This document shows positions 1,678-6,811 of a stretch of 20,371 nt of DNA, piece by piece. The stretch lies in assembly GCA_038858525.1 (NCBI GenBank), contig JAWCFL010000003.1, positions 8,364 through 28,734 on the forward strand, in the 5' to 3' direction. The position numbers were made by a program, and so were the translations under genes. Under the pieces are notes generated by a model. It saw nothing but the letters and a program-made list of their open reading frames with translations. It was not told the origin of the DNA and made no database searches. Every line of letters begins with the position of its first letter. The first letter of the stretch is position 1. The stretch is from Candidatus Jordarchaeales archaeon (lineage in GTDB: Archaea; Asgardarchaeota; Jordiarchaeia; Jordiarchaeales; Freyrarchaeaceae).

Positions 1678-2547
1678 ATGAGCGTCGTGATTTATGACGT
1701 TACGGCTGAGGGAGACCTTGCGGAGCTGCCTAGCCTCAGCAGGGATGCGCTTAGCAGTGACAGAGTGGTGATCGTTGTCGCTGAGAGGCAGAGGAAGATC
1801 TACCTTTGGAAGGGTAAGAGGTCCTCGGTGAAGAAGAAGTTTGTCGGTGCGAGGAAGGCGTCTGACTTGAGGGCTGAGTGGGGGCTCACGTTTAAGGTGG
1901 TCGCCATGGATGAAGGAGAGGAGGACGGCGACTTCCTCAACTTGCTCGGCGTCAGGGTTGAGGCGGCCTCTAGGACGGCGCCCCGAGAGGTGGCCGTGAA
2001 GCCTCCTCAGGAGGCGGCTGTTGCCGATGGGCCGGCGGCCGTTGCTGTGCGTGAGGAGAAGGTTGTTGTCGAGGAGAGGGCGGCGGCTCCTCCTGTCCGC
2101 GCCGTGAGCCGCACTGCGCCGTCCACTGCTACTGTTGCTCCATCTGTTCAGGCGCCTCGTGGTGCTTCTGCGTCTAGGCCTGCGGGCGGCGCCTCTTTAG
2201 AGGTTAACGAGGAGGCGGTGCTCTCGAAGCTGAGCGAGATAGAGGTCCCGTTGGGGTATGCTAGGGAAATAGTGGTTGTCGGGCCGTGTATTTACGCGGT
2301 GAAGGAGACGAGGACTAGCATTTTTGGGAAGGAGAGTGTTGAGCGCAGGCTGGAGAGGGTTAACCCTCCTGAGGGTGTCTTCGTCGTGGAGAACTTTTTG
2401 CCGAGAGTGATATCCGAAGGGGGAAGAATAGTGGCTATAGAGTTTCTCAGGGAGAAGAGCGACGAGGCTGGAGTGGAGCCTTTGAAGAGCGAGATGGTCA
2501 AGCACCTCGAGGATATAATCTCAGTGTTTAAGGGTGGAAAGGAGTAG
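1678..2547 (+). CDS. Gelsolin-domain protein (single gelsolin-like domain, low-complexity linker, C-terminal domain; Asgard 1DGelX-like)
   Basis: Likely start ATG 1678 (track starts 1552 in GT-rich intergenic DNA). N-terminal ~90 aa LSSDRVVIVV...KIYLWKGKRSSVKKKFVGARKASDLR...KVVAMDEGEEDGDFLNLLG follows the gelsolin repeat pattern (xxWxG, helix, EGxE..F). Confidence 0.8.
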   Translation: MSVVIYDVTAEGDLAELPSLSRDALSSDRVVIVVAERQRKIYLWKGKRSSVKKKFVGARKASDLRAEWGLTFKVVAMDEGEEDGDFLNLLGVRVEAASRTAPREVAVKPPQEAAVADGPAAVAVREEKVVVEERAAAPPVRAVSRTAPSTATVAPSVQAPRGASASRPAGGASLEVNEEAVLSKLSEIEVPLGYAREIVVVGPCIYAVKETRTSIFGKESVERRLERVNPPEGVFVVENFLPRVISEGGRIVAIEFLREKSDEAGVEPLKSEMVKHLEDIISVFKGGKE

Positions 2548-2640: not shown

Positions 2641-3447
2641 ATGATGCTAGTAGCTGAGGGTGTATCCAAGATAGTCGGGATGCTTAGGGATGAGTTGAGG
2701 GTACTTGGCGCCATAACGGCGAGGGGGATAGCGCTCTACACGGTTGGGGGGAAGCAGATTTACTCGGACCTGGACGCCTCGGTCGAGGAGAGGCTCAGAG
2801 TGTTCATTCCGAGCTTTCCGGGGCTCAGCGTCGGGTCTCACATAACGCTTAACATAGGTGAGAGGACTCTTATAGTGATGAGGCTCTCGGAGAGAGCTGT
2901 CCTGGCGGTCTTCACCCACCAGAGGGTGGGGATAGTCCTCGTCAAGATGAACGCGCTAATAAAGGCGTATGGCTCAACACTCGACAAGGTGCTGGAGGGC
3001 GTCGTGGAGGAGGAGGTCCCATCGGTACAGCTGCCCGCGGTGGAGGAGAAGGTTGAGAAGGAGGTTGAAGAGGTTCAGGCGGAGGGCGTGGTGGAGGAAG
3101 CTAAAGTAGAGGAAGCCGTGGAGGCGCAACCCTCTGAGGGGGCAACTGCCGAGGCAGCTCCCGCCGCTGAGGCTGCCGCCGAGGCGGCTAAACCCACTGA
3201 AGCCATTACGGCGGGGAGAGTTAAGATAGTTACTGTTCAGGTTCCAGTGATACTCGACGAGAGCATAGTGAAGAAGAGTAGTGGGAGGGAGAGGAAGGTT
3301 CTCGAGCTGTGCGACGGGGAGCGCTCCGTTGACGATATAGCGAAGGCGGCCGGCGTCCCGTTCTTCGAAGCCCTACAGATCTGCACTAAGTATAGTGTCA
3401 AAAAGAAGATCCGCCTAATAGACAGGCCGAGAGTGGTACAGGAGTAA
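2641..3447 (+). CDS. Longin/roadblock/profilin-like N-terminal domain, acidic linker, C-terminal winged helix resembling that of NPRL2
   Basis: GGGTGA RBS at 2633-2638 before ATG 2641/2644. N-terminal ~120 aa alpha-beta-alpha pattern; Glu/Ala-rich linker; C-terminus VQVPV...KVLELCDGERSVDDIAKAAGVP...KIRL. Confidence 0.6.
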   Translation: MMLVAEGVSKIVGMLRDELRVLGAITARGIALYTVGGKQIYSDLDASVEERLRVFIPSFPGLSVGSHITLNIGERTLIVMRLSERAVLAVFTHQRVGIVLVKMNALIKAYGSTLDKVLEGVVEEEVPSVQLPAVEEKVEKEVEEVQAEGVVEEAKVEEAVEAQPSEGATAEAAPAAEAAAEAAKPTEAITAGRVKIVTVQVPVILDESIVKKSSGRERKVLELCDGERSVDDIAKAAGVPFFEALQICTKYSVKKKIRLIDRPRVVQE

Positions 3448-3493: not shown

Positions 3494-6400
3494 TCACCTT
3501 TTCTTTTTCATGCGCCGGACAGCTATTGCCGTGGCTCCAGCGGCGGACACTGCTACAAGCGCCACTACGACTGAGCCTCCCCGGCTTGACGACGCTGTTA
3601 CTAGTAGGAGTAGGAGGAGTAGGAGGTTGGCTTGGGTTTCATAGATGCTCGTTGACACGTATGAAATGTATGATGGGTCGTTCTGGACGTCTTGTCCGTC
3701 CCATTCGGGGAAGCACGTCGCCATGAAGTATGTTTCTCCCGTTATTGTTATGTTGGCTACGCTGTCCCCTGCTTCTCCAATGTACATTCCCCTGAACGCT
3801 GAGAGCGGTGTTGTTGAGGAGAGAGCTGTGAAGGTTCCGCTTCCGTTGAGCGTGTAATTTGAGCCACCCATGTGGAAGTCGGCTATGGGGGAGGAGCCAA
3901 CCTTGAAGCTGAAGCGGTTAGACATCGTGGAGTTGCTGTCAGGGTCCAATGCGGCTCCGCTTTCACTAGTGAAGACCGCCGTGTAGTTCCCTTGGATGAA
4001 CTTGCCGTAGTACGCCATGGCCAAGCTTCTACCCGTGAGGTCGACCGGGCTGCCTTCACCTGTCGCCGCGCTCCAGTCTCCCACTTCCTGGTCTACTTTA
4101 AGGATGCCACTGTAGTTGTCCTCCCCTGCTTCCAAGTGGAAGTGAGCCACCAGCGAGAGGGAGGTTACGTTGGCCGGCGAGGGGGACTTTTCGAAGTCGT
4201 CTGGGTCAACGTAAAGGGGAACATCCCTTATGAATGACCAGACGCTGTGCACTCTGTCGTCGTCCCCCACCTTGAGGGGGAACAGTGTTCCGTTGAGACC
4301 GCTGAGCGAGACGCCGAAGTCCACCGTGGTTCCGCCGGGAACCTTGACGCTGCCGTTAGCCCCGTGCTCACCGTTAAACGGAAGCCTCAGCTCAACGTCT
4401 TCCGCCGAGTTTATGATGAAGACGTGGGTTGCCTCCTCAGGGTCAGCGGCTCCCAGAAGAGGGCTGACGCCCATGTCTAGGACGCCGTCCCCATCCTGGT
4501 CAGTGTAGAGCAGCATGCCTGCGAAGGACGCCTCAATAGTGCTCCAGGAGAGGCCACGGTCAGGCAGGGAGGTGACGTAAACCTCTTGGACGTTGAATAC
4601 CAGCCAGGTCCACTCGTAAGTGTTAGTGGTGATCCACCAGTAGTCGGGGTTGTTTATCAGGTCGTCTATTGATGCATTGATGGTCATAGGGCCAAGGCCA
4701 GCGTAGCCCGGATTCTCCATGCCATTACTCCAAATAGTGCCGTTTATCATTTGCATATCGTTGCTACTGATGGGGGAGCCGTTAACGTAGGTCCAAGTGT
4801 AAGTCCTGTTCCACAGCATGGTTTGCTCGAAGTGCACGTATCCAACATGGGAAATGAGGAGCAAGCCTGGAGGAGACCCTATAGCTGTCACCAGCAACTC
4901 GTAGGAGACATTGGTGGTAATAGTCGCGTTAGCCCGCATCCGGACATAGTAGTTATCTGTGCCGGGGTTATTGTCCAGGTCCAGTGACCCGTCCTCGCCC
5001 ACGGAGTAGTCGAGCCAGCTGAAGGCGGAGTTAAAAGCGATGAGGCTTGAAAGCTCAAAGTGCTTCGATAAGTCAACGCCCCACACCGGGCTTCCATTCG
5101 AGCTGTTGAGGTATATGGGGAGGACGGCGTAGGAGCCGAAGAATGTCGAGTTTGTCGTGTTAAACTTCAGCGAGAATTTTAAGTGTAGAGCCTCGTCAAG
5201 CGTTCTGTTCGCCTCTAAGAGCTCAACGGGTAACTCAGACAGAGGGATAAGAAGGGGTAGTTTTACGGCTATGGCGGCTGAGATGTTTAGGGGGATGTTG
5301 TACATTAGTAGGATTGCGTATTCGGGGAGTTGTCCTCTTAGTAGTTTTAGGGAGAAGGGTAGGAGTGCTATGCAGACATTGTCTACTTGGTTTACGTTTT
5401 GGCCGTGGATGTCTACTAGGATGTTGAAGGGCTCGTTTGTTCTAACCGGGACTTCGATGAGCTGTTTCCCCGCCGTCTGCTGGCTTGTCACGTTTATGTA
5501 AATGTAGGGGTCGTCAACTATTATTTTTGGGTCCAGTGGCTTGTTTATCCATCCGAGCACGTTGCTGTAGTTGTCTAGGACGTTGATCACAGTGTACTTG
5601 TGCTCCCCGTCTGATATGCTGAGGGAGCCGACGAACGTCACGTTGTCGTTTGACGAGTAGCACTCATTAATGTTCAGGGTGAAGTTGGGCGAGCCAGTGC
5701 GCGTAATAACGTACTCGTACTCCGAGACCCTGTAGCCTTCCCCGACGGTGAATGCTCCCTGGTTGAATTTGAGCACTATCCACGTCTTGTCGCCCTTGTC
5801 TATGGCGAATATGGCGTAGTTTATGGGTGAAGAGGCATTTATGGTTATCTTGAACTTCTGCCCGTTCTTGACGTACTTTATAGGTTGCCCGTTTTCGTCT
5901 AGGAAGTGCACTGTGAAGCCGCTTGCCTTCTCGAGGGTTATCAGCCTGAAGGACTTGAACATGCTCTGTGGAAGCCAGTTGAGGGAGCCGGGCTTAACCT
6001 CGTTGCCCTTACTGTCGAGCGTCTTGACTGCGCAGTAGTAGTATCCTTGGAGGGCGGCGTCGGTGAAATAGCCTGTTACGTTAACCACGTATTCATTATC
6101 GCTGTCACTTCTACTGGTGCCGGTGAACGAGAAGGGGTCGGCAACCGTGGTGCCGTCGAACTTAACCATTATGGACTCCTTCTCCCACCTGCTTGAATTG
6201 TAGTTGTATCCTGCCTGGACGTAAACCTTGGCGCCCCCGATGCTGCCGAAGATCTCCACTCCGATATAACCTGCGGCCAGACCTAAGCCCTCAAAGAACT
6301 GCTTCGGCACCCTGACCGAGAAAGTGTAGTTGGCGTTCCTGCTGAGCGTCGACTCGAATCCAAGCGGCCCTGTCTCCACTTCTCCCCCGGAGGAATTGTA

Positions 6401-6631
6401 AATTATGAGCGTCGGCGTTGGGCCAAACTCCCAAGCGTTCACCTCCCAGCTGGCATTGATTGTTGTAGTTCCATTCAGCGTTGACCATGTAACGTTCATT
6501 TCAGGCAGGCTCTGGGCAGCGTATACTGGAGCTTGAATATGCTGGCTGGCCGCCGCAACGCCGACTCCAGTTAGGCCAGCGCCAATCAGGAGCACGGCTA
6601 GAAGCGCCGCCAGCATCACCCTTCCACTCAA
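3494..6631 (-). CDS. Large secreted, C-terminally membrane-anchored glycoprotein (S-layer/surface protein-like), function unknown
   Basis: Likely start TTG 6631, 7 nt after GGAGG (track start 6661). Signal peptide RVMLAALLAVLLIGAGLTGVGVAAA; about 30 N-x-S/T sequons; DQDGDGVLD Ca-binding-type motif at 4475-4501; C-terminal hydrophobic helix then RRMKKKR. Confidence 0.8.
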   Translation of the reverse strand: MSGRVMLAALLAVLLIGAGLTGVGVAAASQHIQAPVYAAQSLPEMNVTWSTLNGTTTINASWEVNAWEFGPTPTLIIYNSSGGEVETGPLGFESTLSRNANYTFSVRVPKQFFEGLGLAAGYIGVEIFGSIGGAKVYVQAGYNYNSSRWEKESIMVKFDGTTVADPFSFTGTSRSDSDNEYVVNVTGYFTDAALQGYYYCAVKTLDSKGNEVKPGSLNWLPQSMFKSFRLITLEKASGFTVHFLDENGQPIKYVKNGQKFKITINASSPINYAIFAIDKGDKTWIVLKFNQGAFTVGEGYRVSEYEYVITRTGSPNFTLNINECYSSNDNVTFVGSLSISDGEHKYTVINVLDNYSNVLGWINKPLDPKIIVDDPYIYINVTSQQTAGKQLIEVPVRTNEPFNILVDIHGQNVNQVDNVCIALLPFSLKLLRGQLPEYAILLMYNIPLNISAAIAVKLPLLIPLSELPVELLEANRTLDEALHLKFSLKFNTTNSTFFGSYAVLPIYLNSSNGSPVWGVDLSKHFELSSLIAFNSAFSWLDYSVGEDGSLDLDNNPGTDNYYVRMRANATITTNVSYELLVTAIGSPPGLLLISHVGYVHFEQTMLWNRTYTWTYVNGSPISSNDMQMINGTIWSNGMENPGYAGLGPMTINASIDDLINNPDYWWITTNTYEWTWLVFNVQEVYVTSLPDRGLSWSTIEASFAGMLLYTDQDGDGVLDMGVSPLLGAADPEEATHVFIINSAEDVELRLPFNGEHGANGSVKVPGGTTVDFGVSLSGLNGTLFPLKVGDDDRVHSVWSFIRDVPLYVDPDDFEKSPSPANVTSLSLVAHFHLEAGEDNYSGILKVDQEVGDWSAATGEGSPVDLTGRSLAMAYYGKFIQGNYTAVFTSESGAALDPDSNSTMSNRFSFKVGSSPIADFHMGGSNYTLNGSGTFTALSSTTPLSAFRGMYIGEAGDSVANITITGETYFMATCFPEWDGQDVQNDPSYISYVSTSIYETQANLLLLLLLLVTASSSRGGSVVVALVAVSAAGATAIAVRRMKKKR

Positions 6632-6811
6632 AGGAAATCCTCCACTGCATAATTTAATCAAATTATAAATAAAGAGGGAATGAAGATTAAATAATATTCT
6701 AAAGAGGCAATTCAGCTTCGGGGTTTGTTCGATCTTGGCGGTGTTGGGGGGAGGAAAAGTTTTAGTTTGTCTTTCGACTTTTTCTAGGTTGAGGGATGGT
6801 TTCTAGTAGCG

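Follow-up and report, generated by a model that had tools for sequence, protein, structure and literature searches.

A Jordarchaeial protein of the Asgard GelX family: a probable calcium-independent actin regulator with a conserved C-terminal domain of predicted alpha/beta fold

The gene at 1678-2547 on the forward strand of the window (the whole stretch of 20,371 nucleotides analysed here, from a hot-spring Asgard archaeon of the Jordarchaeales) encodes a 289 amino acid protein, P0001, which we consider very likely, with a probability of roughly 0.8, to be an actin-binding regulator that works without calcium and belongs to the Asgard GelX (1DGelX-type) family. It consists of one gelsolin domain, a low-complexity linker and a C-terminal domain, X, and this is the published 1DGelX/GelX layout (PMC7444086; bioRxiv 10.1101/2025.11.30.690169). 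Its own genome encodes one strong actin homologue (contig C32:12338-13447; 466 bits) and a weak profilin candidate. A link between P0001 and actin is supported indirectly by this actin, by the co-immunoprecipitation of B35_Gel1 with Lokiactin and by assays of Thor 1DGelX, and by analogy with these proteins P0001 may sever or cap actin filaments. Gelsolin-type proteins are among the few known actin regulators of Asgard archaea, from whose actin system the eukaryotic cytoskeleton is thought to have descended. P0001 adds a Jordarchaeial member to a known, published family and our findings leave the current picture of Asgard actin regulation unchanged; what deserves to be retained is the nature of X and how widely it occurs, the recognition that B35_Gel1 is a GelX paralogue, and the loss, in this lineage, of linkage to a Roadblock gene.

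The longest open reading frame at the locus opens upstream, at TTG 1552; the start codon of P0001 is likely to be ATG 1678, since the N-termini of 23 out of 23 aligned homologues, MS(V/L)V(V/I)YDV, are equivalent to its Met1 and since two TATA-like A/T-rich boxes (TAAATATT at 1623-1630 and TAATTTTA at 1641-1648) fall inside the longer TTG frame. These boxes (1623-1648) may serve as the promoter, and a partial Shine-Dalgarno-like GTGAT (1669-1673) lies five bases ahead of the ATG. The stop codon, TAG 2545-2547, is followed 15 nt later by a run of six T residues (2562-2567), a possible archaeal termination signal, and then by a further A/T-rich box (2572-2586) ahead of the next gene, which suggests that P0001 and the downstream gene are separate transcription units. 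The landmarks that the first-pass annotation had read from the letters are all present in the translation: MDEGEEDGDFLNLLG (residues 77-91, nucleotides to about 1953), VPLGYAREIVVVG, PPEGVFV, PRVISEGGRIVAIEFLR and HLEDIISVF. A total of 24 full-length homologues were found, and a search of 1.84 billion representatives with a profile of X retrieved 224 clusters at 50% identity, so this architecture is not that of a chance open reading frame. The Asgard origin that had been proposed from the gelsolin signature was confirmed by homologues of P0001 from Jordarchaeia and Freyarchaeia, and the contig is archaeal as the genes flanking P0001 include those for a TFIIB/TFB zinc ribbon and an SCP2 protein (Pfam).

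Elsewhere in the window, positions 1-1000 show a GC skew of +0.36 and an AT skew of -0.56 on the forward strand, and positions 1-2000 are strongly G/T-rich, with the real genes on the reverse strand and many spurious low-complexity open reading frames in the other frames. A reverse-strand gene at 3494-6661 encodes a 1055 amino acid protein. Its N-terminal segment is signal- or anchor-like, it contains many N-x-S/T sequons, and at its C-terminal end a hydrophobic stretch precedes a basic tail. The protein is conserved in two related loci (L003 and L004), a Pfam search with it gave no match, and it is probably a surface glycoprotein.

Residues 1-93 of P0001 (1678-1956) are securely assigned to the gelsolin/cofilin fold, in which a central sheet lies between one long and one short helix, as the first-pass annotation had claimed for a gelsolin-like domain, by matches in sequence and in modelled structure. 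In a phmmer search of PDB sequences they matched the Loki 2DGel 7whg (E 4.7e-10) and the Thor ProGel 7c2f (E 1.5e-7). The gelsolin profile check that had been suggested for this domain gave a divided answer, as Pfam PF00626 scored 22.6 bits at the P0001 locus in a six-frame search of the genome, above the gathering cut-off of 21 bits, but 19.8 bits (E 7e-4), below that cut-off, against the P0001 protein itself. An AlphaFold2 (AF2) model of P0001, built from 24 sequences, has a pLDDT of 80-86 across most of the domain and is least confident at residues 55-62, the start of the presumed actin-binding helix, where pLDDT falls below 50. The modelled domain superimposes upon ProGel in its complex with actin (7c2f) with a Z score of 12.9 and an rmsd of 1.8 Å over 86 of 88 residues (Foldseek E 1.7e-6), and upon eukaryotic gelsolin repeats, among them gelsolin G3, adseverin A3 and fragmin F3, with Z scores of 9-11. 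Foldseek gave 49 matches at E<=1e-3, and those listed were gelsolin-family chains throughout.

The gelsolin-like domains of the Sec23/24 coat proteins, which are not known to bind actin, also match the model (Z 7.3-8.7), and it could be argued that the N-terminal domain of P0001 likewise has a non-actin role, in membrane trafficking or some other process. Such a role would agree with the behaviour of GFP-tagged Thor 1DGelX, which in human cells was found around the ER and the nuclear envelope and associated weakly with filaments (PMC7444086), and with the fact that the conserved neighbour of the GelX genes (described below) belongs to the Roadblock family, which is tied to GTPase and trafficking systems. 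However, the closest matches of the domain in both sequence and fold are the actin-bound Asgard gelsolins and not Sec23/24, Thor 1DGelX acts on actin in vitro (PMC7444086), and B35_Gel1 is reported to be expressed and enriched in the Lokiactin co-immunoprecipitation (log2FC 2.08, adjusted p 0.025; bioRxiv 10.1101/2025.11.30.690169, supplementary table); we thus hold a non-actin role to be highly improbable.

The WxG (“DWG”) signature of gelsolin domains is present in P0001 as YLWKG (residues 42-46), with Leu taking the place of the Asp in the alignment, as it does in ProGel. The residues of LWKG (L43, W44, K45 and G46) are nearly invariant across the homologues and, together with the conserved basic helix VKKKFVGARKA which follows, make up the most conserved stretch of the family. 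The position nine residues after the Trp, at the start of the long helix, is presumably that of the type-II calcium ligand, Glu97 in gelsolin G1. In P0001 this position (W44+9) is Lys53, so that the type-II Glu is absent, and the Lys is nearly invariant in the family; it aligns with a Lys in ProGel and with a DE pair in Loki 2DGel. ProGel lacks calcium sites, as do the one-domain Asgard gelsolins, and the activity of Thor 1DGelX is calcium-independent (PMC7444086). From Lys53 and these published facts we predict that control of P0001 by calcium is unlikely.

The gelsolin domain is followed by a low-complexity linker of 80 amino acids (residues 94-173; 1957-2196), close to the roughly 85 residues of Ala, Pro and Val that had been noted by eye. 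Ala makes up 28% of it, Val 16% and Pro 12% (56% combined), and with a pLDDT below 50 throughout it is predicted by the model to be disordered. Neither a WH2-like nor a polyproline motif was seen in it. Its sequence is not conserved across the family, where the spacer between the gelsolin domain and X ranges from 5 to 237 amino acids, with a median of 69 (219 family members). At the other end of the protein, residues 268-285 (PLKSEMVKHLEDIISVFK; 2479-2532) are helical in both models, with a pLDDT of about 60-73, and are conserved as EPLKxEMVxHLxDLxxxF in the relatives from Jordarchaeia and Freyarchaeia. The first-pass annotation had described an amphipathic tail at HLEDIISVF; the motif is there and lies in a predicted helix, but its amphipathicity is moderate and weakly above chance (muH 0.42 compared to 0.22 +/- 0.11 for shuffled sequences, 6% of which reach 0.42).

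Between the linker and this helix lies the core of domain X (residues 174-262; 2197-2463), supported by the AF2 model, invariant columns and a family search. When modelled alone, from an alignment of the C-terminal regions of 18 related loci and that of P0001, X had a mean pLDDT of 81, rising to about 90 in the core, and was made of five consecutive beta strands accompanied by a short helix and a C-terminal helix. The invariant positions are P191, G193, R196, PEG-F (231-235), R243, G249 and A-EFL (253-257), which make up a P-G--R motif ahead of strand 1, PEG-F in the loop that follows strand 3, and the motifs PR, E-G and A-EFL. X has been described as a predicted coiled coil (PMC7444086) and as disordered (bioRxiv 10.1101/2025.11.30.690169), whereas the model and the conservation together argue for a folded alpha/beta domain and neither a coiled coil nor a disordered tail, and so bear out the extra globular domain that had been read at this end of the protein. 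P0001 showed neither a repeat nor a coiled-coil signal, and X is acidic, with a net charge of -4.

Searches of Pfam and NCBIfam with the X family and of PDB sequences with its profile gave no match. In structural searches, the best match of the X model by Foldseek against the PDB had an E value of 0.16, and the best against structure representatives a Z score of 3.5, which is below chance level for such searches; the top matches were Cache, PAS and GAF sensor domains (Z 2.8-3.5), and neither profilin nor Roadblock chains were among the 50 listed. The ESM Atlas gave scores of about 0.8 to unnamed Asgard clusters, and a repeat search gave no match. X is not a degenerate second gelsolin repeat, as its hhalign probability against gelsolin was 0.1% and its five strands are consecutive, without the inserted long helix. 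Kinship of X with the Roadblock or profilin folds was unsupported (hhalign probability 0.8% against the partner Roadblock family described below), and a single X protein, P0078, had a sub-threshold match to Pfam Profilin (E 0.056). As a phylum-wide folded domain without a relative in Pfam, NCBIfam or the PDB, X offers a defined target for structure determination.

Named carriers of X come from Thor-, Loki-, Heimdall-, Hermod-, Sigyn- and Helarchaeota as well as Jordarchaeia and Freyarchaeia, and X was found in 363 of 400 Asgard genomes sampled (and in 88 of the 90 that were of high quality), with between one and five copies in each; the genome of P0001 has a single X gene. A gelsolin domain was recognisable in 226 of 293 X proteins fetched, of which 219 have the order gelsolin-X, four gelsolin-X-X, two X-gelsolin and one gelsolin-X-gelsolin-X. 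The remaining 67, with X only, are mostly short fragments, together with some full-length members which have a diverged gelsolin-like N-terminus, and a few X proteins (for example P0069 and P0095) appear to have no gelsolin domain at all. That the two domains are fused in both orders is good evidence that they work together. Less common arrangements include a Helarchaeotal protein in which X is followed by a long coiled coil (gelsolin-X-coiled coil, P0142), gelsolin-X-X proteins with a basic K/R-IP(S/K)(D/G) tail (P0071, P0101 and P0166), X-gelsolin-zinc ribbon (P0115), X-zinc ribbon (P0097), X-SAP/HeH (P0168), and X with some 340 residues of unassigned sequence after it (P0069).

Tandem X-X forms (such as the three proteins with a basic tail above) bear upon a second possible reading, in which X would be a module for self-association, making P0001 a bivalent gelsolin whose dimers bundle or cross-link filaments, in place of a protein that touches a filament at two different sites. 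Thor 1DGelX does bundle filaments (PMC7444086), for which at least two actin contacts per particle are needed, and a small five-stranded sheet flanked by helices, as modelled for X, has a shape that often pairs along its edges. The net acidic charge of X and the lack of a repeat or coiled-coil signal in P0001 count against dimerisation, however, and we consider it distinctly unlikely.

The preferred reading of P0001 as an actin regulator draws upon its relationship to gelsolins that have been characterised, and here the first-pass annotation, which had placed P0001 with 1DGelX, was right as to the layout of gelsolin domain, linker and X, but the closest characterised counterpart proved to be B35_Gel1 and not B35_GelX, the paralogue with which Thor 1DGelX is said to cluster. 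By exact-sequence look-up, two of our family members (L030:988-1767 and L036:844-1884) are UYP47899.1 and UYP44381.1 respectively, both from the one complete 6.0-Mb genome of Ca. Lokiarchaeum ossiferum B35, and these have been named B35_Gel1 (UYP47899.1, NEF87_004184) and B35_GelX (UYP44381.1) (bioRxiv 10.1101/2025.11.30.690169). P0001 aligns over its full length with B35_Gel1 (30% identity, E 2e-34) and end to end, through X, with B35_GelX (E 1e-18); a Thorarchaeotal homologue, P0202, also aligns over the full length (E 2e-45). Within L. ossiferum the best match of the X profile is B35_Gel1 (E 5e-31), with B35_GelX at E 1.1e-9. In a quick maximum-likelihood tree of 70 proteins, the Jordarchaeial and Freyarchaeial clade containing P0001 falls among the B35_Gel1-type lineages and B35_GelX falls in a separate paralogue clade (98% SH-aLRT); the deep backbone of this tree is weak and so the assignment to clades is based upon well-supported subclades and pairwise scores. 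Taking together the pairwise E values, the best X match, the single X gene of the source genome and the placement in the tree, P0001 is by sequence the counterpart of B35_Gel1 and a paralogue of B35_GelX.

By the same comparisons, B35_Gel1 is a paralogue of B35_GelX and carries the same pair of domains, whereas it has been described as one gelsolin-homology domain and a disordered region, with no mention of X (bioRxiv 10.1101/2025.11.30.690169); their paralogy simplifies the catalogue of Asgard gelsolins. Thor 1DGelX (KXH72031.1) is reported to cluster with B35_GelX (bioRxiv 10.1101/2025.11.30.690169), and going by this statement of the preprint alone the assayed protein most likely belongs to the clade paralogous to P0001, so that its activities carry over to P0001 by analogy only. 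Those activities, on rabbit actin and all in EGTA, are binding with a Kd of 7.7 µM, nucleation at low ratio, severing and bundling; ProGel, by comparison, binds actin very weakly (Kd about 337 µM) and does not sever (PMC7444086).

A neighbourhood sample of 27 Asgard families (25 further families, each represented by a single genome, plus the loci analysed above) showed that in 16 of them the B35_Gel1-type orthologue lies directly upstream of a gene encoding a Roadblock/LC7 protein of roughly 130 amino acids, on the same strand and 6-150 nt downstream of the GelX gene (loci L013, L029, L030, L039, L040, L044, L045, L051, L055, L066-L069, L077, L079 and L080). The partner genes match Pfam PF03259 (E 8e-6 to 7e-5), form one well-conserved orthologous group and match solved Roadblock proteins (9jue, E 1.5e-11). 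Among the sampled loci, a Roadblock gene never adjoined the GelX paralogues. The Asgard papers that we searched gave no mention of this gene pair. In three of the Loki/Thor-type loci the Roadblock gene is followed by a third gene on the same strand (L013:7523-9625, L030:2316-3263 and L068:2577-3329); the N-terminus of its product is Cdc48-N/double-psi-barrel-like, and the L013 product also has a C-terminal vWA domain. This gene was seen in these three loci only, within fetched sequences which extend about 1.5 kb past X.

In the genome of P0001 the pair is split, with the Roadblock orthologue on another contig (C1:161078-161458; L083:1498-2088; E 2e-29); it has 196 amino acids, including a C-terminal extension of roughly 65 residues which the usual 130 amino acid partners lack. 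The orthologue is likewise kept but unlinked in four other genomes, including a Freyarchaeial and an Atabeyarchaeial one. Judged by gene order, the Roadblock linkage has been lost in the lineage of P0001. The gene that now lies directly downstream (2641-3447, forward strand) does not belong to the partner family: it is absent from the ten matches to that family in its own genome, and its hhalign probability is 2.4%. Pfam detected no Robl_LC7 domain in its product, in which an Ala/Glu/Val linker joins an N-terminal domain to a winged helix (weak Pfam match to HTH_47). A conserved two-gene module of P0001 and this gene was not supported, as their synteny is limited to L003, L004 and L010, the T run and A/T-rich box lie between them, and the downstream N-terminal domain differs from the conserved partner Roadblock; the genes flanking P0001 are common only to these three closest relatives. 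A second single-gelsolin protein is encoded in the same genome (L001:1432-2238, contig C4; 268 amino acids, with an Ala/Pro/Glu/Val linker), and its small C-terminal domain has no detectable similarity to X (hhalign probability 0.3%).

The pairing of genes raises the possibility that X docks the dedicated Roadblock/LC7 protein and through it a small GTPase, in which case P0001 would mainly be an adaptor from GTPase signalling to actin and X would not be a second actin site. The frequency, close spacing and common strand of the pairs, and the membership of the partners in one well-conserved orthologous group, all speak for such docking, but X also occurs in paralogue clades without an adjoining Roadblock gene, which shows that X is not tied to Roadblock and is a mild argument against a role with Roadblock only. 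Furthermore, the pair is split or unlinked in the five genomes described above, a profile comparison did not link X to Roadblock, and adjacency is silent on which domain touches the partner. We therefore think it rather unlikely that docking to Roadblock is the main role of X. A more speculative proposal, which we also think improbable, is that X is an unrecognised Asgard-wide interaction fold that receives Roadblock, by way of which a small GTPase would switch gelsolin-type severing on and off, with the Jordarchaeial genes being separated yet their products still cooperating. If this were true, such GTPase-switched severing would be a calcium-free forerunner of the GTPase control of the eukaryotic actin cytoskeleton. 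The dedicated Roadblock gene beside the B35_Gel1-type orthologues gives in any case a named partner to test.

[quoted passage not shown] (PMC7444086). This second contact may raise the affinity and so convert weak binding of monomers or barbed ends into severing, capping or bundling without calcium, as for Thor 1DGelX.

Compared with known systems, P0001 is most like B35_Gel1, which has the same gelsolin domain, linker and X, but which is shorter (259 amino acids), lacks the C-terminal helix, has a linker rich in Asn, Gly and Pro where that of P0001 is rich in Ala, Val and Pro, and has a Roadblock gene 42 nt downstream where none adjoins P0001. Thor 1DGelX and B35_GelX share with P0001 the single gelsolin domain, long linker and C-terminal X, and the calcium-independence of Thor 1DGelX is consistent with the Lys at the calcium-site position of P0001; B35_GelX differs in its Lys/Glu-rich helical linker and in its basic tail with an IPKG-like ending. 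ProGel (7C2F, bound to rabbit actin) is the best structural match to the N-terminal domain and shares LW(K/R)G and the Lys at the calcium-site position, but it is a bare domain of about 90 amino acids to which P0001 adds the linker and X. The eukaryotic gelsolin, villin, CapG and adseverin proteins have the same fold and the WxG signature, but they carry three to six repeats and calcium sites, whereas P0001 has one repeat without the type-II Glu and, unlike them, pairs it with X, a partner domain found only in Asgard archaea.
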